32,000 bases of DNA from Nostoc punctiforme PCC 73102 (GTDB lineage Bacteria; Cyanobacteriota; Cyanobacteriia; Cyanobacteriales; Nostocaceae). Positions 4,273 through 32,000 of the stretch are shown piece by piece (the stretch's first letter is position 1; every line of letters starts with the position of its first letter). The notes below the pieces were generated by a model that saw only the letters and a program-made list of their open reading frames with translations, was not told where the DNA came from and did no database searches. The position numbers were made by a program, and so were the translations under genes. The stretch is taken from positions 6,960,001 to 6,992,000 of the forward strand of contig NC_010628.1 in assembly GCF_000020025.1 (NCBI RefSeq). Direction: 5' to 3'.

Positions 4273-5046
4273 GTGACAAAAAACAATAAAAAAAAGGCTA
4301 TCGTTCAAGCTATTTTCACAGCCGTTGCCTTGGGTTTGGTGATAATGCAAGTGGAATCAGCCCAAGCTGCGACTTTGACGGTTAACAATCTTGATGACAG
4401 TGGTGTTGGCTCGTTGCGAGACACTATCAACATTGCAAGTAGCAATGACGTGGTAGAGTTCTTATTGGGTAGTAATCCCAGTACAATTACACTGACGAGT
4501 GGGGCACTTGCGATGCCTGCGGCGGGCTATGCCTACGTAAATAACCTAACTATCAATGGCCCAGGTAGTAATTTACTTACCATTAGTGGCAATAATCAAT
4601 TCCCCGTGTTTAACATTAACGCCGCAGATGTTACACTTTCCGGGCTAGCGATCGCTGGTGATATCAATGGTTACAATTCTAGTAACGTAACGTTTTTCAA
4701 TAGTACTGTTAACGACAACGTGAAAATAGATAACAGTACTGGTAACGTAACGTTTATTAATAGCACTATCAACGGCAATAGTGTGCAGATTAATGCTAAT
4801 ACATTGACGCTGATTAATGATAGTAATGTAACAGTTCCAAGTAACCCGATCGGCGGCGGCAATTCTGGGCAAAGCAGTAGGGGTGGCAATATTTCAATTG
4901 GAGCAGGCACCATCACTATTACAAGCCCTAACGTTACTCTGAGACAAGTACCCGAACCAAGTGCGATCGCTGGTGTTATACTTGCTGGTGGTCTGGCTTG
5001 GTTAGCGAAGAGAAAGCAAACCCCACTTTGTAAAGCAAAAGTATAA
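4273..5046 (+). CDS. Secreted PEP-CTERM-anchored protein with parallel beta-helix-like N/S/T-rich repeats
   Basis: A GTG start follows an AGGAG ribosome-binding site. The signal peptide is KKAIVQAIFTAVALGLVIMQVESAQA. Repeated NxTxxNSTVN motifs are present. The C-terminal PEP-CTERM sorting signal is VPEPSAIAGVILAGGLAWLAKRK. Confidence 0.85.
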   Translation: MTKNNKKKAIVQAIFTAVALGLVIMQVESAQAATLTVNNLDDSGVGSLRDTINIASSNDVVEFLLGSNPSTITLTSGALAMPAAGYAYVNNLTINGPGSNLLTISGNNQFPVFNINAADVTLSGLAIAGDINGYNSSNVTFFNSTVNDNVKIDNSTGNVTFINSTINGNSVQINANTLTLINDSNVTVPSNPIGGGNSGQSSRGGNISIGAGTITITSPNVTLRQVPEPSAIAGVILAGGLAWLAKRKQTPLCKAKV

Positions 5047-5277: not shown

Positions 5278-5562
5278 TTAAGCCTCTACTTTTACACCCT
5301 TCCAGAATGCCACATAACCCTCAATATTCTTAGCCTTCTCCTTGGTGCTGGGATAGTACCAAGCAGCATCTTTGTTGATTTGTCCATCAACCTCAATACT
5401 GTAGTAGCTAGCGACACCCTTCCAAGGACAAGTAGTGTGGGTATTACTGTCTGTGAAGTACTCCTTGTTAATGGTGTCAGCAGGGAAATAATGGTTGTTT
5501 TCCACAACTACGGTGCGATCGCTTTCGGCTAAAACTGCGCCATTCCAAATTGCTTTCGGCAT
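5278..5562 (-). CDS. DUF427 domain protein
   Basis: MPKAIWNGAVLAESDRTVVVENNHYFP...TTCPWKGVASYYSIEVDGQINKDAAWYY is the characteristic DUF427 pattern. The ATG at 5562 is preferred over the GTG at 5589 used in the ORF track. Confidence 0.8.
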   Translation of the reverse strand: MPKAIWNGAVLAESDRTVVVENNHYFPADTINKEYFTDSNTHTTCPWKGVASYYSIEVDGQINKDAAWYYPSTKEKAKNIEGYVAFWKGVKVEA

Positions 5563-22404: not shown

Positions 22405-22478
<74 letters not shown>

Positions 22479-22485
22479 TTTTTTT

Positions 22486-22600
22486 TGTACAGTGACTAAT
22501 TATTTGTCGTCGGTGACAGATTAATGTCGTTGGGACTAATTAACTGTCGTCGGGACGAATTGATGTCGTTTAGGTGCCAGTGACAGATTAATGTCATTTA
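22486..22600 (+). mobile_element. Transposon end: terminal TGTACAG plus five ~20-bp TnsB-binding-type direct repeats
   Basis: The terminus is TGTACAG at 22486-22492. The repeats are GTGACTAATTATTTGTCGTCGG (22492-22513), TGACAGATTAATGTCGTTGGG (22514-22534), GACTAATTAACTGTCGTCGG (22534-22553), GACGAATTGATGTCGTTTAGG (22554-22574) and TGACAGATTAATGTCATTTA (22581-22600). From memory this closely resembles the ShCAST donor end that I believe is called LE. Confidence 0.85.
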
Positions 22601-22621
22601 TTTACAGAGACTATAGCGATA

Positions 22622-22653
22622 ATGTCAACGTAGCGCTCTCTTTCAACCCTCCC
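22622..22653 (-). ncRNA. Delocalised short (homing) crRNA: truncated repeat GGGAGGGTTGAAAG plus tRNA-Val-matching spacer
   Basis: On the minus strand, a 14-nt truncated repeat (22653-22640) is followed by AGAGCGCTACGTTGACAT (22639-22622). That spacer is identical to 22426-22443 in the tRNA, and the match ends after 18 nt. Confidence 0.8.
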
Positions 22654-22664
22654 TAATAAAAATT

Positions 22665-23554
22665 ATGATAACCCACCTAGTACCTGGCAGGTTATTAAAA
22701 CATTTTTGTATGCGTGCGTAATGATTTCAGATTTGCCTTTCAACCCACCCAGTACCTGGAGGGTTGTTGCCACCAGGAGGCATCTAGAGGAATCCGATGG
22801 ATGGTTCTTTCAACCCACCCAGTACCTGGAGGGTTGTTGCCACACCATTAATCGCCATCCGCCAGATAGAATCCAATCTTTCAACCCACCCAGTACCTGG
22901 AGGGTTGTTGCCACATTCAAGATTATTTGGGGCATCGGAATATTAATCACTTTCAACCCACCCAGTACCTGGAGGGTTGTTGCCACGCAGAGCTTCTTCC
23001 CGGATGTTTTGAAGTTCGCCCTTTCAACCCACCCAGTACCTGGAGGGTTGTTGCCACACCAGGATTACCAATACACTCAGCAGTAAAACAACTTTCAACC
23101 CACCCAGTACCTGGAGGGTTGTTGCCACCGGTAAGCTTATTCTCATCAAAAGTGACATCCTCTTTCAACCCACCCAGTACCTGGAGGGTTGTTGCCACGG
23201 ACGTAACGAAAAAGGTATTCGCGAAAAGTTCTGCTTTCAACCCACCCAGTACCTGGAGGGTTGTTGCCACTATTAAGTGCTGTAGCAAATTCAGGTAATC
23301 TATCCTTTCAACCCACCCAGTACCTGGAGGGTTGTTGCCACTTCCGCACCGTTGTGGAACATGCCGTCGTTACTCTTTCAACCCACCCAGTACCTGGAGG
23401 GTTGTTGCCACATTAGGAGTGCAATGCCAGCGAAATACACACATTGGCTTTCAACCCACCCAGTACCTGGAGGGTTGTTGCCACATCCCATCGCATCTGC
23501 TATCCCCTGAGTAGCGCCTTTCAACCCACCCAGTACCTGGAGGGTTGTTGCCAC
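22665..23554 (-). CRISPR. Type V-K CRISPR array: 12 identical 37-nt repeats, 11 spacers of 33-36 nt, plus one more spacer and a degenerate terminal repeat
   Basis: The repeat on the transcribed minus strand is GTGGCAACAACCCTCCAGGTACTGGGTGGGTTGAAAG. Plus-strand repeat starts are 22737, 22807, 22878, 22950, 23021, 23092, 23162, 23234, 23305, 23375, 23448 and 23518, each 37 nt with no mismatches. The degenerate repeat is at 22665-22701 (ATGATAACCCACCTAGTACCTGGCAGGTTATTAAAAC). The leader is on the cas12k side, right of 23554. Confidence 0.95.
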
Positions 23555-23999: not shown

Positions 24000-25919
24000 T
24001 CAACTTCGCCTAGCTAGCCGATCATGGTAAGCAGAAAGTGCTAATTCCTTTGCTTGTTCATGAGGGCTACCTCTAACAGGTTGTTTTCCCTCTTCAATCA
24101 CAATTCCTGCCTGACTACCTTTACTTTGAATACTCTGTATTAATCTGCCATAGCTCCACTTGTGAACATTAACTCGGTATTGTTTGGCGTATTTTTGCTG
24201 AACTTCTACGGAGCCTGGACATTTTGCTTCGGCTATAGCTTGAATTTCACTTTGAACAATCTCTCGCATATCCCCTAGCTTAGGCAAAACTATATTGCCA
24301 GCTTTATAGGTTTGTGCGATCGCAATAATTTCTTTAGCCAATAATCTGTCTACATACTGCCCTAACTCAGATGTACCAAATTGATTGGGAGAGAAGCTTT
24401 TTTGTGCTTTGTGGCGTTCGTGGGATGATGATCGCTGTTGTCGTCTTTGCCGATTCAGAAGTTCGTAATTGTCGCCAAGTAACTGGCGGATACTCCGGTA
24501 AGCTAGAACTTTACCTGCGATCGCATCTACTACAGCTACGGTGGCAGGTTTTTCTAGTCCCAGGCTTACTCCAACCAAAATGTGTGATTGACCTTGGTAA
24601 AGGGGTTGACTAGGACGCTCAAAGCTATTATTCATTCGATTAAGCGTTGATTCTTTACGTTGAATAAAAGCTTTCTGTGTATCCTTTAGGTCACTTTTTT
24701 CTTTCATCTTCGTGATGAGTTTGCTAATTTCTTCTGCTTTCTCTTGGCGAACCTGTTCTGTTCCGTCAGCAGTCCATAGGCGATTGTCAACACAGCAGTA
24801 GAGGTTCAATCGGTTAAGGTTCCAAGGTTCGCTCTTACCCTCTCCTTCTTGCCAAACTAGGTGACCATTTCTGAGAGTGAATAAGCCACTAGAATACTGG
24901 CTTTTACTTTGGCGTTTAGTTTGTTGATCTTCTAGGAAACGTTGAAACCAGTGAAGTTGGCGATTGTCGCAGTATACCTCAAAGCTAAGATCGCTCAATC
25001 CATTGAAGTGAACACACAGCCTACCTTTTTGATTCTTTGACCAAACCATATCCTCGTTCGTTTCAAAAACAAGGGGGAATGGAAGAGAACTTGGTCGAGT
25101 TAATAGAATATCCTGCCAGCGCTTGGCTTCGGCGTTATCTTCAGGAAAGGTGGTTGTAGCAGTGAAGAGTGTCTCTAACCATTTACGATTGGTCAAATCT
25201 CGACCTTTAGGCATCCGACTTATTAACTTTTCGGTAAGCCTTTGAATTTGGATTTCAACTTGACGACGACGTTTAGCAAATTTTTCTGAATCTTCTTCTT
25301 TATCGCTAAGTTTGCAGCCATTTTTCAATAAGTAGCTGATGGCGCTGCGGCTAAGGATGTCTTCTGTCTCTTGGTAAGCTTCAAATAATTTATTGGATAA
25401 ACTGCGGTCAGAACTAGATGACGAGGATTTTTTAGCCTCCTTGCCCTTTTTTGTTTTGGGTTGAGAGCTATCTGAGTCAGATGTTGGCATAGCTTTTGCC
25501 AAAATTTCAGAGGCTTTGGTACGAATAGCCCCCATACTAGAACCGCTAGTTTCCACAAGTTCAACATCACTGTTGAGCATTTCTAGCCAGCGCATTTTGC
25601 CGTCTAGCTGTTGCTGTAGACGTTTTTGTATAGCCAGCCAAGACTTGTAGATGTAGTCCACAATATGAATCGCCGACATATATAAACGGCTAGGTTGACC
25701 TACAAAGCGAGGGTCAGTCTTGAGAGGTTGGCACAGTTGACTAACAACAGTTGTTGGAAGCTTACCTTGTTGTCGCCAATTCTCGAAGTCTGGGTGTTTA
25801 CCAAGTTGTTCAATTAGTTCATTAATTAAGGGTGTGTTTAAAGTTGCCATCAATTTCCACAGTTTTTGGCGGGTTGATTCACTGGCAATAAGACGGCACT
25901 GGATAGTAATCTGACTCAT
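24000..25919 (-). CDS. cas12k: Cas12k (type V-K effector, naturally nuclease-deficient)
   Basis: The ORF is 639 aa. From memory, MSQITIQCRLIASESTRQKLWKLMATLNTPLINELIEQLGKHPDFENWRQQGKLPTTVVSQLCQPLKTDPRF... is nearly identical to the ShCas12k N-terminus. RuvC-like motifs carry substitutions at catalytic positions: GVSLGLEKP where active enzymes have an Asp, and IVLPKLGDM where they have a Glu. The gene is adjacent to the tracrRNA and array. Confidence 0.93.
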   Translation of the reverse strand: MSQITIQCRLIASESTRQKLWKLMATLNTPLINELIEQLGKHPDFENWRQQGKLPTTVVSQLCQPLKTDPRFVGQPSRLYMSAIHIVDYIYKSWLAIQKRLQQQLDGKMRWLEMLNSDVELVETSGSSMGAIRTKASEILAKAMPTSDSDSSQPKTKKGKEAKKSSSSSSDRSLSNKLFEAYQETEDILSRSAISYLLKNGCKLSDKEEDSEKFAKRRRQVEIQIQRLTEKLISRMPKGRDLTNRKWLETLFTATTTFPEDNAEAKRWQDILLTRPSSLPFPLVFETNEDMVWSKNQKGRLCVHFNGLSDLSFEVYCDNRQLHWFQRFLEDQQTKRQSKSQYSSGLFTLRNGHLVWQEGEGKSEPWNLNRLNLYCCVDNRLWTADGTEQVRQEKAEEISKLITKMKEKSDLKDTQKAFIQRKESTLNRMNNSFERPSQPLYQGQSHILVGVSLGLEKPATVAVVDAIAGKVLAYRSIRQLLGDNYELLNRQRRQQRSSSHERHKAQKSFSPNQFGTSELGQYVDRLLAKEIIAIAQTYKAGNIVLPKLGDMREIVQSEIQAIAEAKCPGSVEVQQKYAKQYRVNVHKWSYGRLIQSIQSKGSQAGIVIEEGKQPVRGSPHEQAKELALSAYHDRLARRS

Positions 25920-26740: not shown

Positions 26741-27388
26741 ATGCCCACATTGACCATTAATCAGCGCCTTGATGCACTGCTACCAAAGCTGCAAGATGCA
26801 CGTCTGCTGAGTAACCGTGGCATTGGTAACGAAATTGGCTTTTATATTTTTGATTATGACGCTGAATATGAACCACTGGTACAGCGCTACGTCGATCGCC
26901 TGAAGCTGCAATTGACGAGTTCACCCTCCGGGTTCGCCAGTCCCTCTTTGTCGGAACAACAAGACCGGGCTGGCTCACCGATCCAGCTTATTTTGCTGGA
27001 AATTGACCTTTACAAGACTATTCTCGACATTTTGTCAGAACGAGGGGTACTCAAAAAAGCTTTTGAGTTGGAAGCAACTAAAGGAAATGCTGCCCTGGCT
27101 AAGACCGTTGCGCCTCTTGTCCGACCTGACCAGGTTATTGCCTACATCCAAAAAAAACTTAGGGGTGATGAACAGCTTGTAATCATGACTGGAGTTGGTG
27201 CTAGCTGGCCCCTTTTACGATCGCACAGTATTCTCAACAACCTACACCCAGTACTTGACAAAATCCCTCTAGTGATGTTTTTCCCTGGTTCTTACGATGG
27301 GCACGAACTACGCCTATTCGACACCTTTAAGGATGACAACTACTATCGGGCCTTCCCTCTGATTCCCCACCAACAACACCACCTATGA
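26741..27388 (+). CDS. brxB: BREX protein BrxB (DUF1788)
   Basis: The N-terminal motif is GIGNEIGFYIFDYDAEYE. The characteristic C-terminus is LVIMTGVGASWPLLRSHSILNNLHPVLDKIPLVMFFPGSYDGHELRLF..DDNYYRAFPLI. The stop overlaps the brxC start (ATGA). Confidence 0.85.
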   Translation: MPTLTINQRLDALLPKLQDARLLSNRGIGNEIGFYIFDYDAEYEPLVQRYVDRLKLQLTSSPSGFASPSLSEQQDRAGSPIQLILLEIDLYKTILDILSERGVLKKAFELEATKGNAALAKTVAPLVRPDQVIAYIQKKLRGDEQLVIMTGVGASWPLLRSHSILNNLHPVLDKIPLVMFFPGSYDGHELRLFDTFKDDNYYRAFPLIPHQQHHL

Positions 27389-30300
27389 ATATCGCCGAAC
27401 TCTTCCAAAAAGACATTCACCGTAATATCAATGGCGTTATCAAAGTTGGGCAGAAGGACGACGAGAATATCCGTCAAGAATTGGAAGAGTATGTCGTTAC
27501 CAACGAACTGGATAAGCACTTTCGGACATTTTTTGAACGCTACACTAATGCCCTAAATAATCCTACGGATAAAATGGGTGTATGGATTGCTGGATTTTTT
27601 GGCTCAGGGAAATCTCACTTTTTGAAGATTCTGTCGTACCTATTGGCTAATCATCAACTGGAAAATAGCCGTGCTTTAGATTATTTTGATGAAAAACGCA
27701 TACCCGATCCGATGTTGCAAGCCTTGATAGCACAGGCGGCACATAGTTCTTGCGATGTGATTTTATTCAATATTGACTCTAAAGCTGATGCCAATAATAA
27801 AAACCATAAAGAAAGCATTACCAAGGTCTTTCAAAAGGTATTTGACGAGCATTTGGGGTACTTTGGGACGGTTCTTCCCATTGCTGAGTTTGAACGTCAA
27901 CTAGATCGCCAAGGTAAATATGCAGCTTTTCAACAAGCTTTCTTGGCAGAGAGTGGCTTGGAATGGAAAGAAAACCGAGATGCTTGGGGTTTTCATCAAG
28001 ATGCGATCGCTAGTGCATTACAAACTAGCACGGGCATGAGTGCAGAAGCGGCTAACCGCTTACTGGATTTTGGCGAACAAAATTATACTCTGAGTCCAGA
28101 AAAGTTTGCTGGCATGGTAAAGCAATATCTGGATAGTAAAGGGCCGCAACATCGCCTAATTTTTATGGTGGATGAGGTAGGACAGTATATTGGTGAAGAC
28201 AGCAAACTGATGCTGAACTTACAGACTGTTGTGGAAGATTTGGGTACTTACTGTTTGGGAAAAGCTTGGGTGGTGGTGACATCCCAAGAGGCAATGGATG
28301 AGATTACCAAAAACAAGATTAAAGGCGAGGATTTTTCTAAGATTATTGGTCGTTTTTATCGCCCACTGAATTTGTCTTCTGCTAATACCGATGAGGTAAT
28401 TAAGTTACGTCTGCTCAGCAAAACTGATGCGGCGCGGGCTGGGTTGGAAGCTTTGTATAGCCAGAAGATTGCTATTCTGAGAAACCAAATTGCTTTTACT
28501 CAAGACAGTGCCGATATGCCGGGATATGGTAATCCTCAAGATTTCTTTACCGCTTATCCCTTTATTCCCTATCAGTTTAATCTGTTACAAAAGGTTTTTA
28601 CTCAAATTCGCCTCATGGGTTCTGCTGGCAAGCACTTGGCATCAGGAGAGCGATCGCTATTGGATGCATTTCAGGTTGCATCCCAAGCGGTAGCCGGAGA
28701 ACCCCTTGGTGTGCTGGTTCCGTTTCACACCTTTTACATGGCAGTAGAAGGCTTTTTGGATAGTTCGATCAACCAAGTTATTATTCAGGCGGGTCGGAAT
28801 CCGCAACTAAATTCTTTTGACATTGACCTATTGAAGACCCTATTCATGGTCAAGTATCTGAAAGAAATTCGGGCTAATTTGGATAACTTAACTACTCTTA
28901 GCTTAAGTAATATTGACCAGGATAAACTAGCTTTGCGGCAGCAGGTAGAAGCAGCTTTGGGGCGGTTGGAACGTCAAACTCTTATCCAGCGTAATGGCGA
29001 TGAATATATTTTCTTGACCCATGAGGAGCAGGATATTGGCAGAGAAATCAAAAATACTCCAGTTGATTCAGGAAAAGTCAAAGAAGAACTACGAAAGCTT
29101 ATTTGGGAATCAATTTTCACTGATAAACTATTTCGTTACAGTCAGCGACACCAGTATAAATTTAACCGCAAGCTGGATGAACAACTCCATAGTCAACAAA
29201 GCGATATAACTCTGCACATTGTTACTCCTTGTGCTGAAACTTACACTGCTATGAAGGAGGATACTTTCTGCATTGGTACTACAGGGGGAGGTTATGAGGT
29301 CTTAGTGCGATTGCCTTATGAGCAACGTTTGGTAGATGACCTCGAAACCCTTGTTAAGACAGAAAAGTATATAAAATTGAAAAGTGGTAGCAACCTCAGC
29401 CCTAGCATCCAGAGAATTTTAAGAGATCAAAGCGACCAAAATAGTAAGCGGTGTGAGGATGTGAAAACCATCCTAGAAAATTTGATTACTCGTGCTGATG
29501 TATTTGCCTGTGGTAGCAAGTTAGAAATTCGCAGCCGAGACACTAAAACCTTGCTGAACGAAGGTTTGAGCTATTTGGTAGGCAATGTGTATCAAAAGCT
29601 CGGTTACGTGGCTAGTGGTTTTGAAAACGAAGATCAGGTAAGCAATGCCCTAACTCGTGAGAGTCAAGAACAAGATATTAACGGACAGCCTGTTAATGTG
29701 GCTGCTCATAGTGAAATGCGAGCTTGGTTAATGGAAGAAACCCGCGTTCGCCGCCTTGTCAGTATTAAGGCATTGGTAGATAAGTTTGCAGTCCGTCCCT
29801 ATGGGTGGTCGGAATTCGACACTTTGGGGGTGATGGCGGAACTTGCTAACAAGGGTGTAATAGAACTGCGACACGCTCAAGGTAACGTTAATCTGCATGA
29901 TAAAGGTTTAGTGATGCAGTTGCGATCGCGCAAAGAAATAGATAAATATACCGTCCGCCTTACTGATGAAATTAACCCAGCAAACTTGAAGATTGCCAAA
30001 GATATGGCCAGTGACTTACTCAATGGCAATATGTCTAGCGATCCACAGTTGCTATTTGAACAATACAAAAATGCCCTAACAAAACGCTCTCAAGAACTTG
30101 AAAGTTGGTTAATCCAAGCAGAAGGTGGGCTTCCCTTCGCTGAATTACTGCGTACTAACTTAAATTTGCTGGCTGAATTGTTAACCAAGGATAGTGCGGC
30201 TAAGTTTTTCGACACATTTCGTCAGCGACGGGATGATATAGAAGAATTTATCGAAGATGTGCAAAAGCTGCAATCCTTCTTTAGCACACAAATTAAGCTG

Positions 30301-30924
30301 TTCCAGCAAGCTCGTAATGACCTGAAAACTCTAGAACCAGAACTACGCCATATTAGTGAGCCAGATTTGCTCAGGCGGGTGGATTTAGTTAAGCAAATTT
30401 TGGCGATGTCTGACCCCACTGCCAAGATTCCAGAATTAGCAATGTTACTCCTACCTGTCAAAGATAAGGTGCAGGAAGCGCTAACAACTCAAATCTATCA
30501 GGTGGAGAGTAAAAGCAAGGCAATGCGGGAGAAATTAGCTGAGTATGTGACTTCCGCTCACGAAGACATTTCTGCACAGCTTGACCTCAGCAATATCACC
30601 CAAGACATCGATAAAGTTGTCACCTCAGTTAACCAGGTAACAAGTATCGATTCTGCGATCGCACGTCAAAGTGAACTAGAAAGCATCCTCCCACAATTGC
30701 TGCAAAAAGTAGATCAGCAAGCCAATGAAATCATTCAGCGTCAGTCAAACAATGGCAGTAACGGCAAAGTTACTTGTGTCAAACCCATCGTATCGGTGCA
30801 GGTAGCGAGAGTTGCGCCTAAACCCCTACTGGAAACACTCCAAGATGTGGATGTTTATCTAGAGGCGTTGCGGAAAACCCTATTAGATGAGATTCAACAA
30901 AATCATCGCGTTCGTCTTGAGTAA
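27385..30924 (+). CDS. brxC: BREX ATPase BrxC/PglY
   Basis: The protein is 1179 aa with Walker A GFFGSGKSHFLK and a Walker B-like LIFMVDEVGQY. Its size and its position between brxB and pglX fit BREX type 1. Confidence 0.88.
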   Translation: MNIAELFQKDIHRNINGVIKVGQKDDENIRQELEEYVVTNELDKHFRTFFERYTNALNNPTDKMGVWIAGFFGSGKSHFLKILSYLLANHQLENSRALDYFDEKRIPDPMLQALIAQAAHSSCDVILFNIDSKADANNKNHKESITKVFQKVFDEHLGYFGTVLPIAEFERQLDRQGKYAAFQQAFLAESGLEWKENRDAWGFHQDAIASALQTSTGMSAEAANRLLDFGEQNYTLSPEKFAGMVKQYLDSKGPQHRLIFMVDEVGQYIGEDSKLMLNLQTVVEDLGTYCLGKAWVVVTSQEAMDEITKNKIKGEDFSKIIGRFYRPLNLSSANTDEVIKLRLLSKTDAARAGLEALYSQKIAILRNQIAFTQDSADMPGYGNPQDFFTAYPFIPYQFNLLQKVFTQIRLMGSAGKHLASGERSLLDAFQVASQAVAGEPLGVLVPFHTFYMAVEGFLDSSINQVIIQAGRNPQLNSFDIDLLKTLFMVKYLKEIRANLDNLTTLSLSNIDQDKLALRQQVEAALGRLERQTLIQRNGDEYIFLTHEEQDIGREIKNTPVDSGKVKEELRKLIWESIFTDKLFRYSQRHQYKFNRKLDEQLHSQQSDITLHIVTPCAETYTAMKEDTFCIGTTGGGYEVLVRLPYEQRLVDDLETLVKTEKYIKLKSGSNLSPSIQRILRDQSDQNSKRCEDVKTILENLITRADVFACGSKLEIRSRDTKTLLNEGLSYLVGNVYQKLGYVASGFENEDQVSNALTRESQEQDINGQPVNVAAHSEMRAWLMEETRVRRLVSIKALVDKFAVRPYGWSEFDTLGVMAELANKGVIELRHAQGNVNLHDKGLVMQLRSRKEIDKYTVRLTDEINPANLKIAKDMASDLLNGNMSSDPQLLFEQYKNALTKRSQELESWLIQAEGGLPFAELLRTNLNLLAELLTKDSAAKFFDTFRQRRDDIEEFIEDVQKLQSFFSTQIKLFQQARNDLKTLEPELRHISEPDLLRRVDLVKQILAMSDPTAKIPELAMLLLPVKDKVQEALTTQIYQVESKSKAMREKLAEYVTSAHEDISAQLDLSNITQDIDKVVTSVNQVTSIDSAIARQSELESILPQLLQKVDQQANEIIQRQSNNGSNGKVTCVKPIVSVQVARVAPKPLLETLQDVDVYLEALRKTLLDEIQQNHRVRLE

Positions 30925-30988
30925 TATTACTTAGTTTTACCAATCATTTTCGTACCTTTATTGCATCACCCTATTCCCTCATCAGCTT

Positions 30989-32000
30989 ATGAACCGCACC
31001 GCTATCAAAAACTTTGCTATTTGGGCGCGTCGTTACCTACGAGAACAAGTTAAAGCTCGTGCTGCCCAATTTGGTATAACTCACAAAAGTATTACAGAAC
31101 CTCAGACAGTGGCGGGGGGACTATTAGTAGCTGGTCAAACGCTAAATACCACGGAAGCAAACCAGTATCATCAACTGCGAAATCGCTTGCAAGATTTAAC
31201 ACTAAGTTCCAGCCAGTCCCAGGCGGTAGATGCGCTGATAGATGAAATTGCCTACACCTGGTTTAACCGTTTGGCGGCATTGCGGTTTATGGAGGTGAAT
31301 GGATATATCGGGCGGGTGTTGAGTAGTAGCGATCCAAATTTGGTAGACCCTGATTTGTTACGCGATGCTAGTTCTATTGCCGAAATGGGAGATTTACCGG
31401 GTCTTGATTTGGATACTCTCAATGAGTGGCGTAGTTTTGCCAATCGTGATCCCAACCCCGATGAGTTTCTCTACCGCCGTTTGCTGTTAGCTCAGTGTAA
31501 AGCTTTGGCAGAGGGAATTCCAGCACTGTTTGACCCTCGCCAGAACTACCAAGCGCTGTTTTTACCTGGAAATTTGTTAAATCAGGATTCAATTGTACGG
31601 CGGCTGGTAAAAGAGATTCCAGAGGAGGACTGGCAGAATATTGAAGTAGTGGGTTGGCTGTATCAGTTCTACATTTCGGAACGCAAGGATGAGGTGATTG
31701 GGGCAAAGTCGAAGGTTGCAGCCGCAGATATTCCAGCAGCGACTCAATTGTTTACCCCCCACTGGATTGTTCGGTATATGGTGGAGAACAGTTTAGGGCG
31801 GTTATGGTTAGAGGCGCACCCAGAATCACGCTTGCGTGAGTATATGCCTTACTATTTGGAAAATCCTAACGATAATGGTGAGGGTGAAAAACCGCAAGCT
31901 TTAACGCCTCAAGAGTTGACCGTGATAGACCCTGCTTGTGGTAGTGGTCATATTTTGGTGTATGCGTTTGATTTGCTGTTTGAAATTTACAAAGAACAAG
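30989..32000 (+). CDS. pglX: BREX adenine methyltransferase PglX, 5' part (runs off the window)
   Basis: The ATG is at 30989, and the ORF is absent from the track because it has no stop in the window. It translates as MNRTAIKNFAIWARRYLREQV...EIAYTWFNRLAALRFMEVNGYI...QLFTPHWIVRYMVENSLGRLW...IDPACGSGHILVYAFDLLFEIY (SAM-binding motif I). Confidence 0.85.
   Translation, partial: MNRTAIKNFAIWARRYLREQVKARAAQFGITHKSITEPQTVAGGLLVAGQTLNTTEANQYHQLRNRLQDLTLSSSQSQAVDALIDEIAYTWFNRLAALRFMEVNGYIGRVLSSSDPNLVDPDLLRDASSIAEMGDLPGLDLDTLNEWRSFANRDPNPDEFLYRRLLLAQCKALAEGIPALFDPRQNYQALFLPGNLLNQDSIVRRLVKEIPEEDWQNIEVVGWLYQFYISERKDEVIGAKSKVAAADIPAATQLFTPHWIVRYMVENSLGRLWLEAHPESRLREYMPYYLENPNDNGEGEKPQALTPQELTVIDPACGSGHILVYAFDLLFEIYKEQ

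Follow-up and report, generated by a model that had tools for sequence, protein, structure and literature searches.

Probable left end of a ShCAST-like type V-K CRISPR-associated transposon beside tRNA-Val(GAC) in Nostoc punctiforme PCC 73102

A tRNA-Val gene followed by a terminus, a CRISPR array and cas12k

The stretch of DNA analysed here, hereafter the window, comprises 32,000 nucleotides of Nostoc punctiforme PCC 73102 (NC_010628.1, positions 6,960,001 to 6,992,000), and all coordinates refer to it unless a contig is named. It harbours a tRNA-Val(GAC) gene followed by a run of T residues, a TGTACAG terminus with direct repeats, a short repeat-spacer unit, a CRISPR array, the cas12k gene, a regulator gene and genes of a BREX system. 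The features are as follows.

22405..22478, plus strand: tRNA-Val(GAC), the chromosomal attachment-site gene, which is the target and not part of the element (ARAGORN; Rfam tRNA, 75.5 bits, full length)
22423..22425, plus strand: protospacer-adjacent motif (PAM) GTT for the att-targeting crRNA, read from the sequence
22426..22442, plus strand: 17-nt protospacer inside the tRNA gene, 0 mismatches; the perfect match extends to 22443
22481..22485, no strand: predicted left copy of a 5-bp target-site duplication, TTTTT
22486..22493, plus strand: 8-bp left-end terminal sequence TGTACAGT, identical to the published ShCAST left-end (LE) and right-end (RE) termini
22494..22513, plus strand: predicted TnsB-binding site L1, long form, GACTAATTATTTGTCGTCGG; matrix score 14.8 bits; aligns to ShCAST L1
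22515..22533, plus strand: predicted TnsB-binding site L2, short form, GACAGATTAATGTCGTTGG; 19.5 bits; aligns to ShCAST L2
22534..22553, plus strand: predicted TnsB-binding site L3, long form, GACTAATTAACTGTCGTCGG; 13.2 bits; aligns to ShCAST L3
22554..22572, plus strand: predicted TnsB-binding site L4, short form, GACGAATTGATGTCGTTTAGG; 16.5 bits; extra relative to ShCAST
22582..22600, plus strand: predicted TnsB-binding site L5, short form, GACAGATTAATGTCATTTA; 25.1 bits; aligns to ShCAST L4, at +97
22622..22653, minus strand: att-targeting ('delocalized', truncated) repeat-spacer unit, with the spacer at 22622-22639 and a 14-nt repeat remnant at 22640-22653
22665..22701, minus strand: degenerate terminal CRISPR repeat; 22670-22696 is an 85% match to the repeat core
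22737..23554, minus strand: CRISPR array of 12 repeats (Rfam CRISPR-DR15, 12 matches, each of 52.2 bits)
24000..25919, minus strand: cas12k, 639 residues, full-length match to ShCas12k (PDB 7n3o), 1209 bits
25991..26452, plus strand: MerR-type regulator, CvkR homologue (Pfam MerR_1; match to Alr3614, PDB 7xn2, E = 3.4e-68)
26741..32000, plus strand: BREX cargo, with brxB, brxC and the start of pglX (Pfam BrxB, BrxC), running past the window

TGTACAG occupies positions 22486-22492, directly after seven T residues (22479-22485). Both ARAGORN and Rfam call an intact tRNA-Val(GAC) at 22405-22478, so the terminus begins 7 bp beyond the 3' end of the tRNA, and the window reads, in order, ...GTTACGTCCA TTTTTTT TGTACAGT GACTAATTATTTGTCGTCGGT GACAGATTAATGTCGTTGG GACTAATTAACTGTCGTCGG GACGAATTGATGTCGTTTAGGTGCCAGT GACAGATTAATGTCATTTA.... 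Ten independent short-read assemblies, drawn from ten sequencing runs, agree exactly on the junction between the tRNA, the T-run and TGTACAG. The preliminary description of this locus, made from the sequence alone, had held that the tRNA is left intact. The full-length Rfam and ARAGORN calls bear this out, as does 100% identity to an unoccupied tRNA-Val(GAC) copy on contig L078, which belongs to another genus. At that uninterrupted locus no TGTACAG follows the tRNA, and similarity to the window ends one base past it.

The CRISPR array and cas12k lie just inside the terminus. The Cas12k protein aligns end to end with ShCas12k, with 540 of 639 residues identical (84.5%). Beyond the window, a PglX-like methyltransferase follows brxC in Logan contig L001 (7465-11001). 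Logan contigs that match Cas12k, BrxC or the flanking phosphoesterase measure 11 kb at most, and their sequence is interrupted at the array and again shortly after pglX. All of them stop 24 bp after pglX, which suggests the presence of a repeated sequence there. The element continues past position 32000, and the 32-kb window contains no tnsB, tnsC or tniQ. Pattern and consensus scans of both strands of the 32 kb found no inverted end of the ...ACTGTACA type. A search of a plasmid collection returned trivial tRNA matches only.

Five packed repeats and a spacer that matches the tRNA gene

The left end appears to be made of the 8-bp sequence TGTACAGT and five direct repeats of about 20-22 bp, which are predicted TnsB-binding sites; four are contiguous, and the fifth starts 28 bp further on. 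All are on the same strand, at +8, +29, +48, +68 and +96 from the terminus, with start-to-start spacings of 21, 19, 20 and 28 bp. They fall into two length classes, a long form with ATTA-NN-TGTC (L1 and L3) and a short form with ATTA-N-TGTC (L2, L4 and L5). The preliminary description had correctly located the TGTACAG terminus and the five repeats after the tRNA. It had also recognized the contiguity of the first four, for which it gave a spacing of 20-21 bp; the measured values are 19-21 bp. The 6-bp gap that it placed ahead of the fifth repeat holds if the sites are counted as 22 bp. Its consensus, GAC(A/T)(A/G)ATTAA(T/C)TGTCGT(C/T)GG, suits part of the set: without gaps, this 20-nt sequence matches only L1 and L3 (with at most 3 mismatches), because the short forms drop one base between ATTA and TGTC.

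We scored the repeats with a weight matrix built exclusively from internal sites of tnsB-proximal (right) ends of other genomes, with none from the window. The training sites lie outside the search pattern, and the threshold for a hit was at least 8 bits. At this threshold the 32 kb yielded matches at exactly the five repeat positions, on the plus strand, and no others on either strand. No paired matches within 120 bp occurred in 200 first-order Markov random sequences. The repeat cluster is thus well beyond chance. That it represents a fortuitous or unrelated feature, such as a tRNA terminator region or the binding array of another regulator, is hardly credible. A T-run does follow the tRNA, and we found no support for that idea beyond this. 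Against it stand the specificity of the matrix and the random-sequence controls, the conservation of site positions across elements with six different att spacers, and homology to the ShCAST LE, which has been bound experimentally.

Directly after L5, the sequence TTTACAGAGACTATAGCGATAATGTCAACG (22601-22630) resembles a degenerate terminus plus site, with 2 mismatches to TGTACAGTGAC. It overlaps the att spacer and is conserved in the tRNA-Val lineage, and its score is under the site threshold.

As for the choice of target, positions 22426-22443 inside the tRNA gene and 22622-22639 inside the element form a perfect inverted match of 18 nt. The latter abuts CTTTCAACCCTCCC (22640-22653), the 3' portion of the minus-strand CRISPR repeat. 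Together they make up a repeat-spacer unit, encoded by the element, in which the repeat is truncated and the spacer is a tRNA sequence. In type V-K systems the LE is expected some 60-66 bp downstream of a GTN PAM that adjoins a crRNA-matched protospacer. Here, 60 bp separate the GTT from the LE, which starts at +61, and the spacer matches the protospacer at 17/17 positions (18/18 when extended). The end thus faces the PAM (GTT at 22423-22425, LE start 61 bp from it), as had been proposed at the outset. The same tRNA-Val spacer is present at seven or more other loci among the matches listed, with PAM-to-LE distances of 58-61 bp and differing junction bases. This combination of a shared spacer and dissimilar junctions suggests that elements have inserted repeatedly and independently at this site.

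In agreement with the initial view of a transposon terminus, the 8-bp terminus and sites L1 to L3 run collinearly with those of the published ShCAST LE. The alignment that had been called for yields 47/51 identical positions with the ShCAST LE oligonucleotide (Park et al., PMC9876797, Supplementary Table 1) and 61/67 with the LE used in electrophoretic mobility shift assays (EMSA; PMC9527255, supplement). We conclude that 22486-22600 is, with high probability, the LE of a ShCAST-like type V-K CRISPR-associated transposon (CAST) integrated 7 bp downstream of tRNA-Val(GAC).

Left ends, right ends and rearranged relatives

Scanning a genome collection with the pattern TGTACAGTGACNNATTAN{1,2}TGTCG gave at least 120 loci, whose titles designate cyanobacteria or metagenome bins, except for two contigs of one bin labelled Acetobacteraceae. 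With one viral contig and the window, the set comprises at least 128 ends. Among the matches listed (128 ends), 36 ends have LE-type offsets (8, 29, 48, (68) and 96/97) and 26 have RE-type offsets (8, 28, ~109, ~139 and ~195). Outward cas12k and/or a flank-matching att-crRNA accompany 23 of the 36 LE-type ends listed, and an inward tnsB within 600 bp accompanies none (0/36). Conversely, 17 of the 26 RE-type ends listed have an inward tnsB that starts within 600 bp, and cas12k or a homing unit is found at 0/26. The window end belongs to the LE-type spacing class; neither RE spacing nor a tnsB reading inward was found at 22486-22600. L103 (Scytonema hofmanni UTEX 2349) is the ShCAST RE as published and has the same native flank. 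It displays RE-type spacing and five sites by scan, and ShCAST-like LEs have four by scan.

The full five-site pattern, including the site at +68, occurs at 18 or more other loci, in which att spacers of six kinds were detected. It is therefore a conserved LE variant rather than a peculiarity of this locus. Location next to tRNA genes is common, as 61 of the 128 ends listed lie 2-48 bp 3' of a tRNA in the same orientation. The tRNA is tRNA-Val for 19 of those 61, and the gaps there measure 2-12 bp. When LE and RE loci of the same assemblies were paired, no clean pair with matching duplications emerged. A single, tentative CTTTT match links an LE and an RE locus from different assemblies (L074 and L100). 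The native flank downstream of tRNA-Val did not come to light when right-end flanks were compared by blast with all loci.

These data bear on the possibility that 22486-22600 is the right end of an element, or one end of a non-CRISPR-guided Tn7-like transposon that finds tRNA genes through TnsD/TniQ. We regard both as very improbable. In prototypic Tn7, it is the right end that is packed and proximal to the target. Moreover, tRNA-targeting Tn7-like elements devoid of Cas12k do exist in cyanobacteria (Hsieh & Peters 2021). Nevertheless, LE-type spacing never adjoins tnsB among the matches listed, the window excludes a tnsB reading inward from the 22486 end, cas12k and the array are adjacent, and the element's own crRNA matches the tRNA at the correct distance from the PAM. 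The V-K literature calls the PAM-facing end LE (Hsieh & Peters 2021; PMC9876797). By definition, the right end is the one beside the transposase genes and PAM spacing is measured from the left end; the attachment site of Cas12k elements adjoins the end opposite the transposase genes (Hsieh & Peters 2021). Given this definition and the placement of the LE at 61 bp from the PAM by Park et al. (PMC9876797), the CRISPR-proximal, PAM-facing end is the LE. The preliminary description had mentioned that name, and it agrees with both sources.

Related loci display a variety of rearrangements. In L020, L024, L106, L120, L123 and L126, only tRNA-Val and the terminal ~25-30 bp of an LE are left. Such remnants suggest frequent decay or turnover of elements at the attachment site. 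In L024, L106 and L112, the end is cut after the first TnsB site and followed by a shared sequence, TGTGACTTTACCCATAACTTTGCCGC..., with a hairpin-like GCCGCAACGGC. The same sequence is found inside L110, and it may be another mobile element that has landed there repeatedly. In L130, two terminal fragments of an end stand back to back and form a 51-bp palindrome (5301-5351; TGTACAGTGACTAATTATTTGTC ACCGC GACAAATAATTAGTCACTGTACA). A truncated CRISPR repeat directly precedes it within a very small remnant at tRNA-Val, and no matching 5-bp duplication was found at this palindrome. Upstream of a truncated LE fragment in L094 (3950-4190) are inverted, related but distinct TnsB-like sites (GACATTAATTTGTCAA and GACAGATATTTTGTC), suggesting abutting ends of another Tn7-like element. 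L078 carries two tRNA-Val copies 4.7 kb apart (7000-6925 and 2330-2140, minus strand). One is the intact, unoccupied copy. The 5' half of the other has diverged, and this second copy precedes an LE with five sites that has neither an att-crRNA unit nor an array. Finally, the viral-classed contig L013 (IMGVR_UViG_3300025449_000010) has tandemly duplicated LE-like ends on its minus strand (4593-4616 and 4771-4794). The distance between them is 178 bp, and each contains four packed sites.

A distinct arrangement was observed in at least five relatives, L014, L063 (443), L083 (4152), L094 (4422) and L112 (4884), where a second TGTACAGTGAC end always occupies the same nucleotide position within a CRISPR repeat. 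The second end is in the LE orientation, straight after the first 17 nt of the repeat (CTTTCAACCCACCCAGT|TGTACAG, with the junction string CAACCCACCCAGTTGTACAGTGAC), and the junction is homologous to 22753|22754 of the window. Arrays that differ in the adjacent spacer (at least three kinds), and also a different CAST (L083), share this junction. A GTT occurs 59-66 bp upstream of the second ends, and the junction keeps a constant position with respect to the repeat and not to this GTT. The second ends usually retain only ~25 bp. They may have arisen by nested insertion, auto-integration or inversion.

It is also conceivable that the end in the window is a genuine V-K CAST LE that now belongs to an immobile fossil, whose RE or whose tnsB, tnsC or tniQ genes have been lost or broken and whose repeats are relics. 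We consider this unlikely. The 32-kb window contains neither transposase genes nor an RE, and many relatives at tRNA-Val have only the terminal ~25-30 bp or are rearranged (L020, L024, L106, L120, L123, L126, L130, L112 and L094 among them). By contrast, all five sites in the window score 13-25 bits, the att spacer matches the tRNA perfectly, the 12 repeats of the array score alike, the cas12k open reading frame is full-length and aligns end to end with ShCas12k, and the CvkR homologue is intact. All that is visible of the element is intact. Its mobility should not be assumed, since several relatives at the same tRNA-Val site have decayed or been rearranged.

Putative mechanism and comparison with known systems

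By analogy with ShCAST, the att-crRNA would guide Cas12k to the protospacer in the tRNA gene, beside the GTT PAM, and TniQ and TnsC would assemble on the Cas12k-crRNA complex at the target. TnsB, presumed to bind the repeats of the LE and the RE, would then attach the TGTACA 3' end to target DNA some 61 bp downstream of the PAM, leaving the LE on the PAM side. Such an insertion would duplicate 5 bp, predicted here to be TTTTT (22481-22485), and it would spare the tRNA. A duplication of 5 bp has been stated for V-K CASTs, with CGTAG at both flanks of native ShCAST (Tenjo-Castano et al., PMC9527255). The packed spacing of TnsB sites in the LE versus their spread in the RE is thought to set the fixed orientation of insertion. 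The role of the internal sites in this process has been stated to be an open question (PMC9371665).

With this end identified, one boundary is set for a naturally occurring ShCAST relative that appears intact and carries a BREX defence island. A single stretch of 250 bp displays every hallmark of RNA-guided homing to a tRNA gene. LE sites vary naturally in number and spacing (five here versus four in ShCAST), and such variation is also raw material for genome engineering. It is tempting to go further and speculate that five-site LEs form a functionally distinct subclass, and that the second ends in CRISPR repeats reflect a repeat- or self-directed (auto-integration) pathway, undescribed as far as we could find. 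We deem these proposals quite unlikely. If the first were correct, a five-site LE might accommodate one more TnsB protomer than that of ShCAST, with altered efficiency or orientation fidelity.

The LE of ShCAST (S. hofmanni UTEX 2349) is the closest point of comparison. Both LEs have the identical 8-bp terminus TGTACAGT, sites L1 to L3 at +8, +29 and +48 with long and short forms alternating (61/67 identity over the first 67 nt), and a distal site at +96/97. In both systems the LE is oriented towards the PAM, 61 bp away, with a truncated att-crRNA unit immediately on its inner side. The published descriptions of ShCAST fit this picture. Its ends have 8-bp termini and 22-bp sites that overlap by 1 bp, denoted L1-L4 and R1-R4 and unevenly spaced (Park et al., PMC9371665), and the transpososome substrate has the LE 61 bp from the PAM (Park et al., PMC9876797). 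EMSA with ShTnsB gave five shifted bands on the RE and four on the LE, on which three sites are annotated (Tenjo-Castano et al., PMC9527255). The native RE consists of an inverted TGTACAGT plus repeats (PMC9527255, supplement). V-K elements have no TnsA and transpose replicatively (PMC9527255).

The two elements also differ. At +68, where the window has its fourth predicted site, ShCAST has the non-site sequence GACCCATCAGCGTTGC, so that the predicted count is five in the window versus four (L1-L4) in the published ShCAST LE. The native flank and duplication of ShCAST is CGTAG, whereas the window element lies at tRNA-Val with a predicted TTTTT. The BREX cargo is a further difference. The architecture of this LE, the logic of its attachment site and its naming have all been described already for type V-K CASTs. 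The sole, modest departure from ShCAST is the additional predicted TnsB site at +68, which is common to at least 18 other elements. As for AnCAST of Anabaena/Nostoc sp. PCC 7120, it likewise has a MerR-type regulator gene divergent from cas12k, and the match of the window's regulator to Alr3614 is full length. Judged by Cas12k similarity alone, the window element is closer to ShCAST than to AnCAST.

Prototypic Tn7 offers a more distant parallel. Its right end, Tn7R, contains several packed, directly repeated TnsB sites of ~22 bp beside the attachment-site gene, and Tn7 has a TGT...ACA terminus and a 5-bp duplication. The packed, target-proximal end of Tn7 adjoins the tns genes and is named the right end, targeting relies on the TnsD protein and not on RNA, and the element has TnsA and moves by cut-and-paste. 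The likeness of the window LE to Tn7R, in packing and in proximity to the target, thus reflects a difference in naming conventions, not a conflict.

The window element also agrees with those catalogued as Tn7-CRISPR-Cas12k at tRNA attachment sites (Hsieh & Peters 2021). They have a truncated repeat with a 17-nt spacer beyond the array, a GTN PAM and a tRNA attachment site beside the end distal to the transposase genes, which is named the left end. We found no differences between the window element and the members of that catalogue, and it looks like one more element of the same kind.
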